Source: Ostreococcus lucimarinus (Eukaryota). Taken from it: DNA of 64,000 nucleotides. The position numbers and the translations under genes were made by a program. The notes beneath the pieces are model-generated. The model made no database searches. It saw only the letters and a program-made list of their open reading frames with translations, and was not told the DNA's origin. This document shows, piece after piece, positions 1,430 through 10,568 of this stretch. Location of the stretch: NCBI GenBank assembly GCA_000092065.1, contig CP000583.1. One strand, 5' to 3'. Numbering within the stretch: position 1 is the first letter of the stretch; each line of letters begins with the position of its first letter.

Positions 1430-2059
1430 ATGCTCGGGGAGGAGACGCCGTCCGCGAGGGAGCTGGTGCCGGATCGACGGTGGTACACGCTGGTGAAGAT
1501 TCACGACGACGGGTGCACGGTGGCGGTGTCGGACGCGGAGCTGGCGATGCTGGAGGCGAGCATTTTGAAGGAAAACGTGGGGGGAGGGGCGAACGCGTGG
1601 ACGCGACCGTCGTCGATGCGACCGTGCTCGAGCGAGGAAGATGGTTCGGGCGGACGATGGGCGCCGGACGACGCGGAGGAGTACGAGGAGTGCGGGGCGA
1701 GCGGACGCGGCGGGGACTCGATGTCGGCGTGGGAGGACTCGGAAGTCAGCAGACTGCCGAGCGCGGCGCCGGGCGTGGCTGGGCACACCAAACCGGGCGG
1801 TCCGTGTGATCACTGCGGTGCGTTGGACTCGCCGCAGTGGCGCCGAGGACCGGCGAGCAAGCCGATGCTGTGCAACGCGTGCGGCACCCGATACCGCAGA
1901 ACGAACAACCTGGGACCGTCGCCGTCGAGCCGCATGGCGACGCCGGAGAAACGCAAGGCGACTGCGGTACAACAAAACGACACCCCGCGTGGGAAAAAGA
2001 ACGCGCGCTGCGGTGCTATCGGTGAAAAATTTTCCCGAGCAAATGCGATGGTTTACTAA
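1430..2059 (+). CDS. GATA-type zinc-finger transcription factor; 5' boundary uncertain (ORF open from 827)
   Basis: C-x2-C-x18-C-x2-C GATA finger 'CDHCGALDSPQWRRGPASKPMLCNACGTRYRR' near the C-terminus. Stop TAA at 2057-2059 is followed by AT-rich 3' UTR. Confidence 0.55.
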   Translation: MLGEETPSARELVPDRRWYTLVKIHDDGCTVAVSDAELAMLEASILKENVGGGANAWTRPSSMRPCSSEEDGSGGRWAPDDAEEYEECGASGRGGDSMSAWEDSEVSRLPSAAPGVAGHTKPGGPCDHCGALDSPQWRRGPASKPMLCNACGTRYRRTNNLGPSPSSRMATPEKRKATAVQQNDTPRGKKNARCGAIGEKFSRANAMVY

Positions 2060-2229
2060 ATAAACCTCGCCCAACGACGTGTTGGCGTCCGGATCTTATC
2101 TTCAAGGATCTAAAATCTATTCCAACCTAATTCACCTATTCCTTTGAAGATCACAAGCAGTGGATGCAAAAATATAGAAGCCGCAAAAATGTTATTACAA
2201 ACATGAATTTAGTAGTTTACATGCGTTGC

Positions 2230-5130
2230 CTAAGCTTCACCTCTCGCGACGAGGTGCTCGCGCAGCCAGCGCTTCTTCGCGAGCAACTGCGCTTTGCGCG
2301 ATTCCAGTCTGGCGCCGTCCTCGCGCGCGGAGGCAGCCAGCCTGGAGAATTTCGAATTCGTCGATGACGCGTCGTTACCAGGGCTCGTTGACGAGACCGT
2401 TTCAACATCATTTGGCGCGTTTTGATTCATCGAAGCCTTTGACGGCGTCGGCGAGGCAAAACTGCGCAGACGATTGCCAAAGCTGCCGAGCTTGGATCCG
2501 GCGATGTCGGTTAGTTTTTCCATCTGACTCGTCAGCGAGCGGAGAGAGTTGCCCGACATCGGCGATGCGTGCGATGGATTTAGCTCACGTATTGATCCAG
2601 GTGATGTAGAGAGCGAAGAGCTCGCGTCTAGCCGACTCGTCGATGCGGCGAGTGCGGCTTGCGTGTCGCTGAGCGCCTGTGCGGACGAGTCGATGATGCT
2701 GACGTACTCCAGAACGACCTGGCTCGTGATTTTGCGAACGAACGATGACCACTCACGAAGGATTCTCACGCAAGAATTTCTCGCGCTCGCACTCAATTCT
2801 TCGATGATGTCGGCGAGTCGCTCAAAATCGTCGACGAAATCCTTTGAGCCCCGTGCGACGAGCTCGTGCTCCAACCACTCGCCCGCTTCAAAGACGAGCA
2901 ATAACGACGCGTTGGTCTGAGATAACGTGCGCGAAGATATCGCCCGCACGCTTTGTGATGTTTGCTTCTCACGCTCCAGCGCGTTCGAGCGTCGACTCAG
3001 AACCGATTCGAGCGTCTTGACGCTTTGCAAAGCCGCTCGAAGACGTCTTTCTTCATCCGCGTGCGATTGCTCCAAGCCGTCTTTTGCGCTCACACTGCCA
3101 GTCTCGCTATCGCTCGCCGCCAACGCGTCATCAATGGCAATATGCGACTTATCATACGCCTTCATAAGTTCGCGTGAGACCTGCTCGAGCTTTTTCTCCG
3201 TTGATTCCTGCTTTATCTTGTTGCGGCTCTCCGCGTTCGCCGCCCAATCGTTCACCGCGTCCTCCTCCGCGGATAATTCGTCCTTGAGTTTTGCCGTAGT
3301 CGCGCTTAAATTTTGCCTCAACCTCGGCAAGTCTTCGATCGCTTCCGTGTGCGTGCGCTTCACCATGATTCTAATTTCGTTCAACCTATTCTCCGTCTCG
3401 TTCTTATGAGACTGAAAAGACGCGGCGAGATATTCCTCGTCCGGTTCGGCGGTGATTGAAGCCTCCGCGTTTGTGTCCTCTCCGAGGTCTTCCCAACCAT
3501 CTGCTCGGGATATTTTCGGTGTGACACTTTTTTTACGCTCACCGACGAGCACGCTCACCATCCACGCGAGTTCAGCACGGATTTGTTCGAGGGACTCGAG
3601 GACAATTTCCGCCTGTTCGATTGTGACCTCAAAAATTGACTCTGTCCAAAGCGGCCACATCGATCTGTTGTACGATTGCGAAGCGAGAAACACGCTCAAA
3701 TCTGGCGCCATTTCCAACTGTTGATCCATAGTGTTGCGAAGTGTGATGACTTTTGTCGCGAATTCACCTTGAAGAAAGCGAATCTCTTCGCAAAATGATT
3801 TCAGTCGCGACTCCAGAATGGCGCGCAACGGTCGCAAAACGATTTGTTTCACGCACGTCAACACTTTATCGCCATGCTCTGTGAGCGCATTCGCGTGCGT
3901 CTCAATCGACACCACTTTGGCAAAGATTGAATTCAGCTCACTCGTTTTGAGAATAGATTCGGGTGAGTTCCTGTCATCACTCGAGTGTCGCTCACGCTGC
4001 GACTCGTTTTCGACGGGTTCGCCATTCATGTCGGAATCATGAACACTGCTCGCGAGCGATGCATCCTTGAGCATGGATAACTCATCTTTCAAATTTTCAG
4101 TCGCGCACATATTTTCGTGCGCGGCCGTCATTTTATCTCGTAGATCTCCCGAGAGTAGACCGACGTACAAGTCATCCACATCCGTCAACGCCGACACGTT
4201 TGTAATCGCGGCGGGCAACCGCACGTCGCTCGGACGTCGAAACTTCCCTCGCACGCGCGCCGTAAGTTCGTCTACTTTCGCGGGCGAAAGTTCGTTGCTC
4301 AATAACTCGCGAACTCGCGCTAGAAACGCGTCGCACTCCGCCTCATCGCACGCGTCGCCCTCGCCTTCGCTTGCCGGCGCTCGGCGCAAACTCTCGCTGC
4401 ATCGTTGCAGCAGCTCGATCGCCTCGCCCATCTCCGTGGTCGCTAAAATTGCCTGCGCGTTCCGTTCGAGCAGCGCGACGCACGCCGCAAATAGCGGCGC
4501 GCGGTGTCGGTGCCTAAACATCTCATCCCACACCTCCATCGTCGCTCGCGTCGGTAACACGTTGACGAAGAGCGTGAGCAACCACTGCCCGCTCATGATG
4601 GCCGCGATGATATCATCCGGCCCCAGCGCCCCCACGTGCAAGCCAACGCTCGGCAAACGCTCGCGCAATATCCTCATAAACACCCTCTGATCGAGTTTCG
4701 CCGCCGTCATCCCTTCCGAAAAGTACCCCGGCACGATTTCCCCCACCAGCTGCACCAGGCACCAAAACGCGTCCTCCTCGTCCAATCCCGCCAGCAACAA
4801 AAACGCCGCGATCGAGTGCATCGACTGCACGTACCCGATCTCCGGTTCGTGCGACACGAACGCCAGCAGCACTCGCTTCAGCGCGTTCCAATCCTTCGTT
4901 CCCGGCTCGCTCAGATCCAACGCGTTTCGAAACGCGCCGCCGACGCGCGGCAAATCCTTATCAATCTGCCCCGACGTCTCCGCGCTGTGCGTCTCCTCGT
5001 CCCCTCTCAGATCCACCAGCGCGCGATAGTGCCCCGGGTACGTCTCCCGCATCCCTCGCGCCGCGCTCCGCGCCCACGTCTCGCTTCGCGCCGCGTCGTT
5101 CGCGTCTCGCGCGTGCGTTTCGTTCGCCAT
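2230..5130 (-). CDS. TBC-domain Rab GTPase-activating protein with long C-terminal coiled-coil
   Basis: TBC arginine-finger motif 'IDKDLPR' and glutamine-finger 'YVQSMH'. Long heptad-rich E/K/L tail. Start taken at M 'MANETHARD' (5130); the upstream part of the ORF is Arg-rich junk. Confidence 0.75.
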   Translation of the reverse strand: MANETHARDANDAARSETWARSAARGMRETYPGHYRALVDLRGDEETHSAETSGQIDKDLPRVGGAFRNALDLSEPGTKDWNALKRVLLAFVSHEPEIGYVQSMHSIAAFLLLAGLDEEDAFWCLVQLVGEIVPGYFSEGMTAAKLDQRVFMRILRERLPSVGLHVGALGPDDIIAAIMSGQWLLTLFVNVLPTRATMEVWDEMFRHRHRAPLFAACVALLERNAQAILATTEMGEAIELLQRCSESLRRAPASEGEGDACDEAECDAFLARVRELLSNELSPAKVDELTARVRGKFRRPSDVRLPAAITNVSALTDVDDLYVGLLSGDLRDKMTAAHENMCATENLKDELSMLKDASLASSVHDSDMNGEPVENESQRERHSSDDRNSPESILKTSELNSIFAKVVSIETHANALTEHGDKVLTCVKQIVLRPLRAILESRLKSFCEEIRFLQGEFATKVITLRNTMDQQLEMAPDLSVFLASQSYNRSMWPLWTESIFEVTIEQAEIVLESLEQIRAELAWMVSVLVGERKKSVTPKISRADGWEDLGEDTNAEASITAEPDEEYLAASFQSHKNETENRLNEIRIMVKRTHTEAIEDLPRLRQNLSATTAKLKDELSAEEDAVNDWAANAESRNKIKQESTEKKLEQVSRELMKAYDKSHIAIDDALAASDSETGSVSAKDGLEQSHADEERRLRAALQSVKTLESVLSRRSNALEREKQTSQSVRAISSRTLSQTNASLLLVFEAGEWLEHELVARGSKDFVDDFERLADIIEELSASARNSCVRILREWSSFVRKITSQVVLEYVSIIDSSAQALSDTQAALAASTSRLDASSSLSTSPGSIRELNPSHASPMSGNSLRSLTSQMEKLTDIAGSKLGSFGNRLRSFASPTPSKASMNQNAPNDVETVSSTSPGNDASSTNSKFSRLAASAREDGARLESRKAQLLAKKRWLREHLVARGEA

Positions 5131-5559: not shown

Positions 5560-7548
5560 ATGCTTCGAGCGAGCGCGGCGCGACGAGACGTGCCGACGCC
5601 GGTCCTGGGGAGGTTATCGCTCGCGCGCGTGGCGCTGGTGGCGATGCGCGTGGAGCCGGAGGTGACGGAGGCGAGCGCGCGGGAGACGCTGCGGCGGGTG
5701 GTGGAATCGACGGTGCGCGCGGAGCTGCGAACGCTGCGAACGGCGTTCGGAGACGCGGCGACGGACGAGGGCGAGGGATGGCGCGATGTGCACGTGTTGG
5801 GGATGTCGAGCGAGACGTACGTGTGCGTGACGCCGCGGAAGTACGCGGAGGCGACGAAGATGGTGTGTCGGGCGACGACGAGCGACGAGAAAATTAAAGA
5901 GGCAAAGATTCCAGTGCGCGTGACGGAGGTGACGACGTGCGAGGGGAAGGATCAGATGGATGTGTTGCGGAGTTTGGTGCCGACGTTGGTTATGCAGGCG
6001 TTCGGAGAGGTGCCGCACTGGCGTGCGTTCGGGCGCACGGAGTACGGGACGCGGTTCATGTACGAAGACTTTTTCCCGTCGGTGCCGGGAGGGATGACGC
6101 ACGCCTTCGGGGTCGAGATTGAACACGGAATCAAAGTCACCAAGGCGCCGGCGACGCTGGCGCAGGACATCGGTGAAGATTGTGAAATTGAGATTCTGTT
6201 TCCAAGCATCAACGCCGTGGCGCTGCGGCTGCAACGATTTGGATCGGTGATCGACGAAATGCGACAACACGGAGTGGCGACGGCGAAAATCAGATCATTC
6301 ATCGACGGCGCCAAAGTCGTCGAGATCCACGACACGCCGATCATGGCGCAAGCGGCGCCGGAAATCGGCGTTGAAGTCGGTATCGTCGCGATTCGTCGCG
6401 AAGTTCCGCGTCCTTGCGGCTTCAAATCGATCGCAGAATTCAGAATCGCCTTCGAGTCGTCGCTCGGAACGTTTGTGCCCAGACACGCTCACACGGATGA
6501 TTCAGAGGAGGAACTTCTCGCTGATATCTGCGTTCCTGGGTGCGATAAACCTTTCTTATGGCCCGTGTCTTTGCTTCTCAAAAGCACTGGAGGTACCGAA
6601 TTTCCGGCAAGGCAGTCGCATGTGACGAACGACCACGTGCTGCGATTTCTCGAAGCCGCGCGACGCGTGAACATCGTCGACGCCCATCTTTCCTGGCTCG
6701 TCCGACGGAGCACGTTCTTGGCTCGTGAGAGCGCGCCCAAGAGTGGACCTGTCGTCCCAGATCGTGATATCTTCGTCGGCGCCTCGCACAACCGAAGCGG
6801 ATGGCCCGCGTTTTCTGCCCGAGCTAACGGGATGCCAGATTCGCTCGAGATGTGGGTCGATCCTTGGCCGCCGAATCGTAACGCGTTGCCGGATAGCATC
6901 TTCTCGCCACACGATATGGTCCCACCGAACTTTACGTCTACACCACCATCCATTCCACCAACGTTGAAAGCGCCGGGCGAAAGCAGTGATCTATTCATCG
7001 GCGAAGATTTCGACGATATCATTGATTGCGCGATGGACTTGTCTCCGTCTCGAATCGTCGCCAACGCGAGAAAGCGCATGCGCGTTGAATCTTCCGGCGA
7101 CGAAGCGCCTCCAGTGCTCGGGAGCCGCGTGACGCAGGATGGTATTCAAAAGTCACAGTTTTACAGCGTGCCAGGAGCTCCACCGATGAAGAAAAGGACG
7201 ACGCCGACGGGTCGAGAAAATCTCAAGAATCGAATCGTCGCCGCGTACGGAGTCGACAATACTGAAGTTTCCAAGCGTTTTCTCGATGTCTGTCTGCTGA
7301 TTGAGGCCGACAAACTTGATCAAATTACCGTCTCTCGGCACCATGCATTGGATGCTGCGGTGACTGACGCCCGAAACTTGATCAAATCTGTTTTGAAAAA
7401 GTATGAAGACGACGAAAACGGCAAGAATTTTGTAGAGCGATGTGGCCTTGTGCTGACGCAGATCCCGAAGGGGCGGAAGAAAGTGGAACTCATTGATTTC
7501 TTGCGAAGCGCTTTCGATCTAAAGATAAAGACGAAAACAAAGTTATAA
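5560..7548 (+). CDS. Hypothetical conserved protein (662 aa), no family recognised
   Basis: Long ORF with balanced, protein-like amino-acid composition and a lower-GC codon-usage stretch. Stop TAA at 7546-7548 before an AT-rich intergenic segment. Confidence 0.5.
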   Translation: MLRASAARRDVPTPVLGRLSLARVALVAMRVEPEVTEASARETLRRVVESTVRAELRTLRTAFGDAATDEGEGWRDVHVLGMSSETYVCVTPRKYAEATKMVCRATTSDEKIKEAKIPVRVTEVTTCEGKDQMDVLRSLVPTLVMQAFGEVPHWRAFGRTEYGTRFMYEDFFPSVPGGMTHAFGVEIEHGIKVTKAPATLAQDIGEDCEIEILFPSINAVALRLQRFGSVIDEMRQHGVATAKIRSFIDGAKVVEIHDTPIMAQAAPEIGVEVGIVAIRREVPRPCGFKSIAEFRIAFESSLGTFVPRHAHTDDSEEELLADICVPGCDKPFLWPVSLLLKSTGGTEFPARQSHVTNDHVLRFLEAARRVNIVDAHLSWLVRRSTFLARESAPKSGPVVPDRDIFVGASHNRSGWPAFSARANGMPDSLEMWVDPWPPNRNALPDSIFSPHDMVPPNFTSTPPSIPPTLKAPGESSDLFIGEDFDDIIDCAMDLSPSRIVANARKRMRVESSGDEAPPVLGSRVTQDGIQKSQFYSVPGAPPMKKRTTPTGRENLKNRIVAAYGVDNTEVSKRFLDVCLLIEADKLDQITVSRHHALDAAVTDARNLIKSVLKKYEDDENGKNFVERCGLVLTQIPKGRKKVELIDFLRSAFDLKIKTKTKL

Positions 7549-7647: not shown

Positions 7648-9609
7648 TTAAAGATTCCTCAACAACGTTTCGAGTTTAGTCATCGTCTCCTCCGAAAGCG
7701 CGGACGATGGGTTAGTGTTAATATACTCTAACTCCTCGCGCATTGTTTCTGTCGCGCGCTTGACCGCCTTGGCGAGCATATCTTCGACTTCTTCCGCAGT
7801 CTTATTGTTCGCGAAACCTTTTTGGATGGCAAACAAACCGACGGTTTGCTCGGCGAGCGACGCGACCTCTCCTTGCTTTTGCTTGAGGAAACCACGAATG
7901 GCCTCGGAGCGGCTACGAAGCTTGCTTTTTTCTGTTCCAGCGCTACCAAACGTACCCATGTCGTCCGATTGCATCAAATCGAGGCGAAGTTGAAGAAAGT
8001 TGAGCGAGCGGAAAGGCCCCGCAGCGCCCGGCGCGCCGATGCGACTCACCGAATCTTTCGCGCTGATGATCCATCCTTTCGCCGGATCGTACGAATCGAC
8101 AAAAACTTGACCATCAGTGATGGACATGAACTCTTCGACCATCGGTCGCGACTGCACGAACGCGGACTCGGGAAATTCGTCATCCGCCGTGGATACGTGC
8201 GCCGCCTTGGCTTTTTCCTCGAGCGCCTTGCGCAGCTTCTCTTGCACGGCGGCAGGCATGGAGTCGAAACCCTTGATCGATTCGACGCTGCTCGGGAGCA
8301 CAGCGCCACCCGAACCGGCGCCTTCGACCCCAGATTTGAACGTCTTCTTGTACGCCCCCTTCGGATGGTACATGACGCCCATGAGCGTGATGGACCCACC
8401 CTTGAGTTCGTCGTTCATTCTAGCAACGCGTTGGAGCGTCATACCTAAGAATCTGCGACGTTCGGCGAGTGAAGCGGAAATCAACATGCCCTCGTACTCT
8501 TCCATTTGCTCTTCCGTACCCTCGGCGACGTTCAACTGCGGTGCCATGCGCGCCATATCCTTGGTGAAGTTGACCAAGCCGGTGAAATCGTCGAGCACCA
8601 AGAGGACGTCTTCGCCCAAAGCACGCGCGCCCTCCGCGATGGCGAACGCCGTGCACGTGGCCGCGTAGCGCTCGGCCTCGCTCGGTTCATCGTCCACGGT
8701 CACGATCGTGGTGTGCGACATCGCCCCGTCTCCCTCTAATCGCTTCGCGACTTCGTCGACGCGAGACGCCTGGGCGCCCAGCGCCGCGTACACGCACCGC
8801 ACGCCCGTACTCCTTTGCGCCACGATCGATGTCAATCCGAGCTCGGAAAGTCCCGTTCCCGGTTCACCGCTCACCAGCATGCACTGCCCGCGCCCGACCG
8901 GGGCCAATAAATCCACAGCCTTGATCCCCGTCACGAGCGGCGTCGTGATCGGCTTTCTTTCCTCCACGCTCGGCGGTTCGCGCATCATCTTCGACGAATC
9001 CTCCGTTCCGGTCACCATCGCCGACCCATCCCTCGCCTCCCCGAACGCGTCCACGATCTTCCCTCGCGTCGCCCTCGCGCTCGGTCCCCACACGAACTCC
9101 GTCTTGCTCGCCTCCGCCGTCTTCCCCACCGCCCTCGCGCCGTCGCCCGTCCGTCGCCGCTCCCCTCCCTCGCCGCCGTCGAACATCAGCGCGAACGTCT
9201 TCGGTTCCCGATGGCTCAGCAGCACCGCCCGTCCGCCATCCGCGAATCGCAGCACCGCTCCCGGCGGCGCCGCGCTTCGCATGCCCTCCAGCGCGACGAC
9301 GCCGCCCCGCTCCGCCCGCGCGCACGTCCCGCTGAAATTCTTCATCCGATCCTCGTCCTCCACGCTCTCCACCGTCGGCGCCGCGCTCGATCGCGCGTCC
9401 TCCGGCACGGGTTTGCCCGCGATTCGCGCCCGCGCCACCGCCTCGGTCCCGCGCGCGCGCCGCGAGACGCCGTCGCCGCGATCGCCCGGTCGGCGGCGCG
9501 TCGCCGCGATCGTCGCCGTCGCGTCGCGTCGCGCGGGCGCGGCGCGGCGCGCGACGGCGCGACACGCGCGCGCGAGCGTCATCGCGCGATGCGGCGCGAC
9601 GGCGAGCAT
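7648..9609 (-). CDS. ATP synthase F1 alpha-subunit-like protein: divergent paralog with degenerate Walker A and a mitochondrial-type presequence
   Basis: 'TGIKAVDLLAPVGRGQ' matches the alpha-subunit motif TGIKAIDxLVPIGRGQ. N-terminal beta-barrel and C-terminal helical domain are collinear with F1-alpha. The P-loop GDRQTGKT is replaced by 'GEPGTGLS', 'LLVLDD' is retained, and there are large insertions. N-terminus 'MLAVAPHRAMTLARACRAVARRAA' is presequence-like. Confidence 0.7.
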   Translation of the reverse strand: MLAVAPHRAMTLARACRAVARRAAPARRDATATIAATRRRPGDRGDGVSRRARGTEAVARARIAGKPVPEDARSSAAPTVESVEDEDRMKNFSGTCARAERGGVVALEGMRSAAPPGAVLRFADGGRAVLLSHREPKTFALMFDGGEGGERRRTGDGARAVGKTAEASKTEFVWGPSARATRGKIVDAFGEARDGSAMVTGTEDSSKMMREPPSVEERKPITTPLVTGIKAVDLLAPVGRGQCMLVSGEPGTGLSELGLTSIVAQRSTGVRCVYAALGAQASRVDEVAKRLEGDGAMSHTTIVTVDDEPSEAERYAATCTAFAIAEGARALGEDVLLVLDDFTGLVNFTKDMARMAPQLNVAEGTEEQMEEYEGMLISASLAERRRFLGMTLQRVARMNDELKGGSITLMGVMYHPKGAYKKTFKSGVEGAGSGGAVLPSSVESIKGFDSMPAAVQEKLRKALEEKAKAAHVSTADDEFPESAFVQSRPMVEEFMSITDGQVFVDSYDPAKGWIISAKDSVSRIGAPGAAGPFRSLNFLQLRLDLMQSDDMGTFGSAGTEKSKLRSRSEAIRGFLKQKQGEVASLAEQTVGLFAIQKGFANNKTAEEVEDMLAKAVKRATETMREELEYINTNPSSALSEETMTKLETLLRNL

Positions 9610-9722
9610 GCCGACGCGCGCGCGTCGTCGCGGTGTGCGGCGGCGCCGTCGCGCGCGCGTCGGCCGCACTCGCGCGCGCGCCGAAGCGCCGCGCCGCGAC
9701 GACGCGACGCCGCGACGACGCG

Positions 9723-10568
9723 ATGGCGAAGAAGAAGGCGTCTCGAACGTCGCCCGCGGTCGAGCGCGCGCCGGCGCGCGCGAGCGACGGCGCGACGGCG
9801 ACGACGGGCGCGAACTGGGCGGCGCTGAAAAAGCGCATCAACGCCGGCGCGTCGAGCGCGGCCAAGGCGGCGGCCGCGGCGCGACGCGCGCTGGAGGACG
9901 TCGACGATGCGACGCGAACGCGCGACGGCGGGCGCGACGCGAGCGCGACGCCGAGGGCGACGGGACGGAACACGGCGGTGACGGCGGTGCTGGCGCTGGA
10001 CTGCGAGATGGTCGGCGTCGGCGCGGACGGGAAGCGGTCGATCCTCGCGCGAGCGTCCATCGTGAACGAGGATGGGAACGTGATCATGGACGCGCACGTG
10101 CTGCCGACGGAGCGGGTGACGGATTACAGGACGGCGGTGTCGGGGGTGCGAGCGAAGGATTTGACGGCGGCGAACGGCGCGGTGGCGTTTAAAAAGGTGC
10201 AGGCGCAGATGAGCGAACTGCTGAGGGGACGGATATTGGTGGGGCACTCCTTGAAGAATGATATGCGGGTGCTGATGCTGGATCATCCGAAGCGAGACAC
10301 GCGGGACACGAGTTTGTATCATCCGCTGACGAGGCCGTTGCGGCCGGAGGAGCGGTGCGTTCCGGGCGCGCCTCGCGGTCGCGGATGTCGCGCCCTGCGC
10401 GATCTCGCGCGGCAGCATTTAGGGTTAGAGATTCAAAAGGGCGAGCACTCCTCCGTGGACGACGCGCGGGCGACGTTGGCGCTGTATAAAAAGTTTGCCA
10501 AGCGGTGGGAGAGCGCGCTGCGCCGCGCCGACGGTAGAGACAAATTCAAAAAGCGTCGCGTCGACTAG
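9723..10568 (+). CDS. REX4-like DEDDh 3'-5' RNA exonuclease
   Basis: Exo motifs 'ALDCEMVGVG', 'HSLKNDMRVL' and 'HSSVDDARATLALY'. ATG at 9723 lies 113 bp from the divergent minus-strand gene start. Confidence 0.75.
   Translation: MAKKKASRTSPAVERAPARASDGATATTGANWAALKKRINAGASSAAKAAAAARRALEDVDDATRTRDGGRDASATPRATGRNTAVTAVLALDCEMVGVGADGKRSILARASIVNEDGNVIMDAHVLPTERVTDYRTAVSGVRAKDLTAANGAVAFKKVQAQMSELLRGRILVGHSLKNDMRVLMLDHPKRDTRDTSLYHPLTRPLRPEERCVPGAPRGRGCRALRDLARQHLGLEIQKGEHSSVDDARATLALYKKFAKRWESALRRADGRDKFKKRRVD

Follow-up and report, generated by a model that had tools for sequence, protein, structure and literature searches.

Can a protein that descends from the alpha subunit of F1-ATPase keep an F1-related role once the nucleotide site of that subunit has decayed? 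This question is raised by a gene of Ostreococcus lucimarinus, located in a 64,000-nucleotide window (the whole stretch of DNA analysed here) of contig CP000583.1 in assembly GCA_000092065.1. On the minus strand of this window, an uninterrupted open reading frame (ORF) of 653 codons spans 7648..9609 (−), and is the longest ATG-initiated frame at this position in the ORF list (653 aa, coordinates including the stop codon). A first-pass annotation had described its product as a mitochondrially targeted, alpha-like paralog with an ablated P-loop, possibly a lineage-specific accessory subunit. Comparison with its relatives, which form the family now called xATPA, indicates that the residues facing the beta subunit are essentially invariant, while the protein's own non-catalytic nucleotide site drifts.

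An F1 alpha-like protein of the xATPA family

Sequence and structure comparisons agree on the F1 alpha-like architecture that was first proposed for this protein, i.e., a beta-barrel, a central domain, and a C-terminal bundle. Pfam matches include ATP-synt_ab (PF00006, 3.9e-27, residues 228-437) and ATP-synt_ab_C (PF00306, 9.3e-07, residues 541-651), with the N-terminal domain PF02874 undetected by sequence in the window protein, and all strong matches in a PDB sequence search are F1-ATPase alpha chains (best match Thermotoga 2r9v, 6e-36). An AlphaFold2 model built from a 28-sequence family alignment (mean predicted local distance difference test score [pLDDT] 80, predicted template modeling score [pTM] 0.78) has three domains, with a beta-barrel at the N terminus, an alpha/beta domain in the center, and a helical bundle at the C terminus, and shows pLDDT <50 at residues 1-86, 424-445, and 472-476. 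When this model was compared to the PDB with Foldseek, only F1 alpha chains were retrieved, at target-normalised template modeling (TM) scores of ~0.75-0.83; at the sequence level, 117 of the 475 positions aligned with bovine alpha are identical (~25%). The N-terminal beta-barrel, or crown, domain (residues ~89-175; 9085..9345, −) is modeled as strands at 93-172 with pLDDT ~90 and aligns with the alpha N-terminal domain in the PDB matches. The alpha-type helical bundle (residues 541-651; 7657..7989, −) corresponds to the ATP-synt_ab_C match and to AlphaFold2 helices at 538-652 with pLDDT >87.

The main motifs could be placed on this framework. Translation and alignment to bovine alpha show a degenerate Walker A, GEPGTGLS (8845..8868, −), at the position of the canonical GDRQTGKT, with TGIKAVDLLAPVGRGQ standing ahead of it; K175 is replaced by L254 and T176 by S255, so that the first description of this motif (Lys to Leu, Thr to Ser) was accurate. 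The Walker B-like LLVLDD noted at the same time is likewise found in the translation (8587..8604, −), and its D340/D341 correspond to bovine D269/D270. The long insertions also reported there number three relative to bovine alpha (residues 362-371, 379-386, and 419-484), the largest being 66 aa long.

These features match a family that has already been described. A preprint of 9 July 2026 names it xATPA, or ATP1B in Chlamydomonas (bioRxiv 10.64898/2026.07.08.737214), and the window gene almost certainly encodes its O. lucimarinus member: residues 89-487 are identical at 399/399 positions to the entry “xATPA_CHL_MAM_Ostreococcus_lucimarinus” in Supplemental Table 1 of that work (bioRxiv 10.64898/2026.07.08.737214). 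Because of this identity, the gene is to be regarded as already catalogued, and the family as known rather than discovered here (bioRxiv 10.64898/2026.07.08.737214). The 222 homologues listed there come from Chlorophyta and from algae with secondary plastids, and the family is absent from land plants, red algae, and cyanobacteria (bioRxiv 10.64898/2026.07.08.737214). As described there, the N terminus is an unfolded targeting sequence, a “bump domain” of ~60 aa occupies a fixed position, the P-loop (GxxxxGKT) is inconsistently conserved, and an alpha arginine directed toward the ATP site of beta is conserved (bioRxiv 10.64898/2026.07.08.737214).

All sequence-level characters of xATPA were found in the window protein, namely the alpha fold, an N-terminal extension, the bump, a degenerate P-loop, the arginine finger, and the listing in the preprint's table. 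The bump domain corresponds to the 66-aa insertion (residues 419-484; 8158..8355, −), which lies between the GGS strand and the VISIT-DG-like motif and replaces ETQAGDVSAYIPTN. Its position matches that defined in the preprint, the insertion site is the same in all family members aligned, and the AlphaFold2 model shows disorder at 424-445 followed by helices at 443-447, 453-474, and 480-484.

Our homology searches found the family confined to eukaryotic algae and clearly apart from canonical alphas. Within Mamiellophyceae, orthologues include Bathycoccus prasinos CAL6404814, Micromonas pusilla EEH53487/8 (a split gene model), and M. commoda XP_002501730 (the P0042 cluster, ~50% identical to the window protein). 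Others were found in Trebouxiophyceae (Chlorella sorokiniana PRW45016, Picochlorum, Apatococcus, and Nannochloris), in Ulvophyceae (Bryopsis), Pyramimonadophyceae (Pyramimonas and Cymbomonas), and Pedinophyceae (a pedinophyte), and in Chlorophyceae (Dunaliella, Raphidocelis, Volvox, and C. reinhardtii CHLRE_10g419050, i.e., Cre10.g419050). The suggestion of a lineage-specific subunit thus cannot be maintained, since members are found throughout Chlorophyta and in many algae whose plastids are secondary.

Beta-facing residues and the nucleotide site

For a comparison site by site, the window protein was placed in an alignment to bovine alpha together with 81 dereplicated family members of the green type and with canonical alphas, which provides 82 family sequences per site. 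The numbering of the bovine sequence reproduces the known K175, T176, Q208, and D269. Among the residues that alpha lends to the catalytic site of beta, the equivalent of S344 in the VISIT-DG motif is Ser in 82/82 sequences (S496 here, within MSITDGQ at 8107..8127, −), and the equivalents of D347 and G348 are each kept in 82/82 (D499 and G500 here). The arginine finger, which we take to be bovine R373 in SVSRVG from counting along the bovine sequence, is Arg in 79/82 (R523 here, within SVSRIG at 8035..8052, −). At alpha's own nucleotide site, by comparison, the equivalent of K175 is Lys in 56/82 (L254 here), that of T176 is Thr in 44/82 (S255), that of Q208 is Gln in only 14/82 (A279), and that of R362 is Arg in 4/82 (G512).

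One part of the earlier reading has to be revised at this point. The first-pass annotation had considered both the arginine finger and an 11-residue segment unrecognisable. The segment is indeed replaced by family-specific sequence, but the finger is not lost, as R523 is kept in SVSRIG and, by our count, bovine R373 does not lie in the 11-residue segment. A placement of the finger in “HSRLLER”, from which its loss would follow, is rejected on the same count. Alignments, the motif table, and the translation further delineate a family-specific segment with a conserved EYEGMLIS..AERRRFLG motif (8434..8574, −), in place of a canonical 21-residue stretch.

The fate of the P-loop differs among lineages. 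A full G-x4-GK[ST] is kept in 50/81 green-type representatives and the Lys is absent in 25/81, including all 20 of the 20 representatives of Mamiellophyceae, in which the variants GEPGTGLS, GEVGTNLS, GEPNTGVS, GEADARLA, and GELGTGIN are found. In a neighbour-joining tree (distance-based, with five canonical alpha outgroups and no bootstrap, and thus indicative only), xATPA forms a clade apart from the five canonical alphas, within the limits of this sampling, and the sister branch of Mamiellophyceae (P0083/P0169) retains GK[ST]. Since the Lys is missing throughout Mamiellophyceae while this sister branch retains the motif, it looks like the P-loop Lys was lost once, at the base of Mamiellophyceae, although this reading is only as indicative as the tree. 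Separate P-loop losses are seen in Pyramimonas and in a few chlorophyceans. It is this comparative pattern, a Lys lost throughout one class and sporadically elsewhere next to a near-invariant beta-facing Ser and Arg, that is new here.

A few more distant alpha-like proteins (P0239, P0243, P0250, and P0257) carry an insertion at the same place and motifs of the “LISMSDGQIWL” or “LISLSDGH” type, and probably belong to the “SAR-related” subgroup of xATPA. Two of them (P0250 and P0257) keep GTGK[ST], and the P-loop is lost in P0239 and P0243.

Selection on the gene

Ratios of non-synonymous to synonymous substitution rates (dN/dS, by Nei-Gojobori) suggest that this is a working gene. For the whole gene, dN/dS is 0.22 against a strain with a 95%-identical protein and 0.12-0.16 against clades ~76% identical, and it falls to 0.02-0.08 for residues 346-495, which include the replaced segment and the bump. 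The N-terminal 90 residues stand out with a ratio of ~0.65, versus 0.02-0.25 in the core, as would be expected for a targeting peptide.

These values bear on the possibility that the ORF is a decaying duplicate, or an assembly or frameshift artefact of a real alpha gene. The loss of canonical motifs could be read in this way, as could one transcriptome-derived entry with a frame-shifted N-terminus in the preprint's table. We nevertheless consider it extremely improbable, given the overall dN/dS of 0.12-0.22, an ORF without interruption in all strains and clades compared, an identical protein indexed in 141 blocks of the assembly collection, and a family conserved across Chlorophyta and detected in the proteomes of other algae. 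A sequencing frameshift in particular is contradicted by the same P-loop reading in the identical protein from these 141 blocks and in every Mamiellophyceae orthologue. Taken together, these comparisons indicate that the xATPA gene is under purifying selection and functional, and neither a pseudogene nor a frameshift artefact. As the P-loop Lys is gone from all 20 Mamiellophyceae representatives and the gene is constrained all the same, nucleotide binding by xATPA itself is evidently dispensable in this class, at least as judged from sequence.

Relation to the canonical alpha subunits

If xATPA were the only alpha subunit of the organism, it would have to serve in F1 despite these changes. The mitochondrial genomes (mtDNA) of some relatives, i.e., Micromonas, Pycnococcus, and Prasinoderma, do lack atp1 (PMC3873408 Table 2), which would leave room for such a substitution. 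Ostreococcus mtDNA, however, carries atp1 (PMC3873408 Table 2), and canonical ATPA proteins are listed for O. tauri for both the mitochondrion (AGR42696) and the chloroplast (AGR88221; table of bioRxiv 10.64898/2026.07.08.737214), so that a sole-alpha role is refuted for the genus and, for the window gene, next to inconceivable. Similarly, the nucleus of Bathycoccus prasinos encodes, next to the P-loop-less paralog, a canonical alpha that has both a presequence and GDRQTGKT, and the diatom xATPA behaves unlike ATPA in a yeast ATP1 deletion strain.

Because canonical mitochondrial and chloroplast alphas exist in the close relative O. tauri, and considering also Bathycoccus and Ostreococcus mtDNA, xATPA is best read as an extra paralog and not as the organism's alpha. 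The earlier view of a non-canonical, alpha-like paralog with a degraded nucleotide site, distinct from an ordinary atp1, is thereby borne out by the canonical alphas of O. tauri and Bathycoccus. The two outcomes that the first-pass annotation had considered fatal to its own reading, a sole alpha subunit and a P-loop created by a frameshift, were both looked into, and neither holds: O. tauri has its own alphas, atp1 is present in Ostreococcus mtDNA, and the P-loop reading recurs in all Mamiellophyceae orthologues.

The Bathycoccus nuclear alpha is a mitochondrial-type protein of 559 aa with an N-terminal extension of ~55 aa, encoded on contigs of ~1 Mb (L010 = Ga0257106_1000513, 3001-4476; P0402-P0519), and in its mature form closely resembles the mtDNA-encoded atp1 of O. 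tauri. With atp1 nuclear in Bathycoccus, mitochondrial in Ostreococcus, and absent from the mtDNA of Micromonas, the transfer of this gene to the nucleus differs among close Mamiellophyceae. A canonical Micromonas alpha was not found in a metagenome scan with plant atp1 or in a protein search with the Bathycoccus alpha. Most matches in the former were alphaproteobacterial operons; the others comprised two contigs from land plants, two from AT-rich algal mtDNA, and a single nuclear gene from Bathycoccus. The latter was swamped by Bathycoccus micro-variants.

Targeting of the protein

The N-terminal extension (M10-R88; 9346..9582, −) is presumed to be an organellar targeting peptide based on its low pLDDT, composition, and relaxed dN/dS. 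Residues 10-88 include 17 Arg, 19 Ala, and 11 acidic residues, with a net charge of +10 over residues 10-60, which is presumably a generic Arg/Ala-rich organellar presequence. To date, experimental localisations of xATPA are only plastidial, based on a GFP fusion in Phaeodactylum tricornutum and fractionation in Euglena (bioRxiv 10.64898/2026.07.08.737214); in the former, xATPA-eGFP colocalises with chlorophyll (bioRxiv 10.64898/2026.07.08.737214).

An accessory or alternative alpha targeted to the mitochondrion, and associated with the mitochondrial F1Fo ATP synthase, appears unlikely on this evidence. In its favour, the extension is Arg/Ala-rich and positively charged, as a mitochondrial presequence may be; in Chlamydomonas and Volvox, the orthologues bear the annotation of mitochondrial alpha isoforms (ATP1B); and DeepLoc predictions for the family include mitochondria. 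For the most part, the case comes down to presequence composition and the legacy ATP1B annotation. In GC-rich prasinophytes, however, we would expect both kinds of transit peptide to be Arg/Ala-rich, which makes composition uninformative. A mitochondrial localisation of ATP1B has never been demonstrated, and over the diel cycle ATP1B expression follows that of plastid ATP-synthase subunits. In Chlamydomonas, thylakoid fractions have yielded an F1-associated protein of 70 kDa, and the localisations in P. tricornutum and Euglena again point to the plastid. Between a generic presequence, divided predictions, and plastidial experimental localisations in the family, the label “mitochondrially targeted” is unsupported.

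Potential role of xATPA

Overall, the window gene probably encodes a pseudo-alpha, i.e., a nuclear-encoded protein of F1 alpha descent with an organelle-type extension, which would act in the biogenesis or regulation of beta or F1. How it would do so can be outlined by analogy with the diatom homologue, and a plausible mechanism, if somewhat short of a probable one, is that the imported protein engages beta through its catalytic-interface residues and does not form a rotary hexamer. Ostreococcus xATPA would be imported, most likely into the plastid, and would compete there with canonical alpha for binding to F1 beta (and gamma). As closure of the alpha3beta3 ring is predicted to be blocked by the bump, only incomplete or transient F1-like sub-complexes would form, and from this a role in beta or F1 biogenesis or regulation would follow, rather than one in rotary catalysis. 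The benefit would be felt under cold, low-salinity, and continuous-light conditions.

This outline builds on several experiments in P. tricornutum. Purified diatom xATPA binds ATPB with a Kd of 1.2e-8, versus 2.3e-9 for ATPA, i.e., five-fold more weakly (bioRxiv 10.64898/2026.07.08.737214), and recovers ATPB and ATPC in pull-downs from cell lysate (bioRxiv 10.64898/2026.07.08.737214). AlphaFold 3 predicts an assembly of 2 alpha, 2 beta, and 1 xATPA, in which the bump blocks the third beta (bioRxiv 10.64898/2026.07.08.737214). A growth defect of the knock-outs is seen only at 6 °C, half salinity, and constant light (bioRxiv 10.64898/2026.07.08.737214), with normal Fv/Fm and unaffected expression of ATP-synthase genes (bioRxiv 10.64898/2026.07.08.737214).

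Several observations weigh against such a role. In green algae, including Ostreococcus, experiments on xATPA go no further than its detection in proteomes, and the proposed import into the plastid and interaction with beta are carried over from a diatom orthologue of the “SAR-related” type. Targeting predictions for the family are split between mitochondria and plastids (bioRxiv 10.64898/2026.07.08.737214), and the block on ring closure by the bump is itself an AlphaFold 3 prediction. In addition, a labyrinthulomycete xATPA did not complement the diatom knock-out (bioRxiv 10.64898/2026.07.08.737214), and because of this failed rescue, function may not be conserved between xATPA homologues.

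A further possibility is that the alpha fold has been repurposed for a function without F1 subunits, e.g., as a scaffold or protein-homeostasis factor, with in vitro beta binding persisting as a relic. Such a protein would fit with diatom knock-outs in which pathways of protein metabolism, and not of ATP synthase, are altered and Fv/Fm is unchanged, with the presence of xATPA in non-photosynthetic labyrinthulomycetes, and with mutants of Chlamydomonas and Cyclotella in which xATPA levels do not depend on those of the other CF1 subunits. This explanation is nonetheless quite unlikely. The VISIT-DG Ser and the Arg finger, which make sense only at an interface with beta, are near-invariant across the 82 sequences while the protein's own site drifts, and the diatom protein binds ATPB in the nanomolar range and retrieves both ATPB and ATPC from lysate.

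Within the proposed role in beta or F1 biogenesis or regulation, a dispensable nucleotide site next to a near-invariant Ser and Arg argues for a function exerted through the catalytic interface of beta rather than through ATP binding by xATPA itself. More tentatively, the Mamiellophyceae protein might then be a fully nucleotide-free pseudo-subunit, in which the Ser and Arg lent to beta are the sole “catalytic” features still conserved, and a dedicated partner of unassembled beta, to which it would donate an arginine finger or whose site it would cap. If so, it could tune beta stability, CF1 assembly, or the ATPase activity of free beta under cold and continuous light. A natural contrast exists between P-loop-intact xATPA (Chlorella and Chlamydomonas) and P-loop-dead xATPA (Ostreococcus, Micromonas, and Bathycoccus), which lends itself to direct biochemical comparison. 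More broadly, xATPA represents a widespread and abundant plastid-associated relative of alpha in marine phytoplankton, and Ostreococcus is both genetically tractable and ecologically important.

Gene start and genomic context

The gene had been called from 7648 to 9609, a start codon that is not confirmed by comparison with the strain encoding a 95%-identical protein (L001). The ATG at 9582 (M10) is common to the xATPA of both strains. Downstream of it, the DNA alignment includes a single 3-nt indel, while upstream the alignment collapses, with gaps of 4 nt and 9 nt. Since both ATG conservation and a clean frame begin only at 9582, the start is probably not at 9609, and the true coding sequence is likely 7648..9582 (−), starting at M10. 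An identical 653-aa protein is predicted in many assemblies, and its contigs, some chromosome-sized, are those indexed in the 141 collection blocks.

Two entries of the preprint's table differ from this model at the N-terminus. The O. lucimarinus xATPA model begins at M89 (MKNFSG, window position 9345), without the targeting peptide, and the public gene model may thus omit the transit peptide, an omission that would bias localisation predictions for this species. In one transcriptome-derived entry, the N-terminus is a translation of an alternative-frame ORF (8864..10087, −), which overlaps the 5′ half of the xATPA gene, and the true frame is taken up from “VTGIKAVD”. Such a change of frame could result from a 1-nt indel in the transcript assembly, and the N-terminus of the entry is likely an artefact. 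The wrong frame stays open over 8864..10087 because the sequence, at 69% GC, is poor in stop codons, and the overlapping long ORFs on both strands around ~8700-10400 are presumed to be by-products of this composition.

On the upstream side, an RNase_T-family exonuclease gene (9633..10568, +) is divergent from xATPA, and its ATG is only ~110-140 bp away. On the other side, a 662-aa ORF (5560..7548, +) without a Pfam match converges on the 3′ end of xATPA across a gap of ~100 bp. This gene order is kept in related strains and clades, with the divergent RNase_T-domain gene on one side, and a ~660-aa unknown gene and a RabGAP gene on the other. Scans of the whole 64-kb window for tRNAs and Rfam families yielded no tRNA gene and no Rfam family at gathering score. 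GC content across the window ranges from ~0.53 to 0.72 per 2 kb (0.53 at 2001-4000 and 0.72 at 1-2000).

Comparison with known systems

With canonical F1 alpha, the window protein shares the fold, TGIKAVD..GRGQ, the Walker B DD, a VISIT-DG-like motif, the SVSR(I/V)G finger, and the C-terminal bundle. It differs in carrying GEPGTGLS instead of the Walker A GDRQTGKT that binds the non-catalytic nucleotide, in the changed equivalents of R362, Q208, and Q432, in the family-specific sequence and insertions that replace a 29-residue segment and ETQAGDVSAYIPTN, and in the 66-aa bump. Its gene is also nuclear and specifies a presequence, and canonical alphas exist beside it.

Within xATPA, the diatom protein (P. 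tricornutum Phatr3_J31465 / B7FRE6) has the same three-domain alpha-like fold, a disordered N-terminal extension, and a bump of ~60 aa at the same position, and the degenerate P-loop and conserved arginine finger are likenesses that extend to the family. The diatom protein is, however, of the “SAR-related” type, whereas the Ostreococcus bump is of the “green-related” type and has another sequence. Even among green-type xATPA, those 50 of the 81 representatives with G-x4-GK[ST] contrast with Mamiellophyceae, this gene included, in which the Lys was lost.

Outside of F1, the B subunit of V/A-type ATPases is non-catalytic, has a degenerate P-loop, and contributes to the site of its catalytic partner. 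As a general analogy, both proteins are members of the alpha/beta superfamily that pair (or, for xATPA, would pair) with a catalytic partner after losing their own canonical Walker A. The B subunit is, however, stoichiometric and essential in a complete rotary hexamer, whereas xATPA is an additional paralog that, by prediction, leaves the ring incomplete, and is clearly F1 alpha-derived by sequence.

Finally, the F1-like X0 ATPases of Mycoplasma (the G1-ATPase of the gliding motor, and the atypical F-type ATPase associated with the MIB-MIP system; cf. PMC12994834) also represent divergent alpha and beta paralogs diverted from ATP synthesis, and the G1-ATPase alpha chain 9io5_D is among the PDB matches of the window protein (4e-23). 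These systems consist of operon-encoded pairs of alpha-like and beta-like proteins and are active ATPases, in contrast to xATPA, for which only an alpha-like protein is known, with no dedicated beta-like partner identified.

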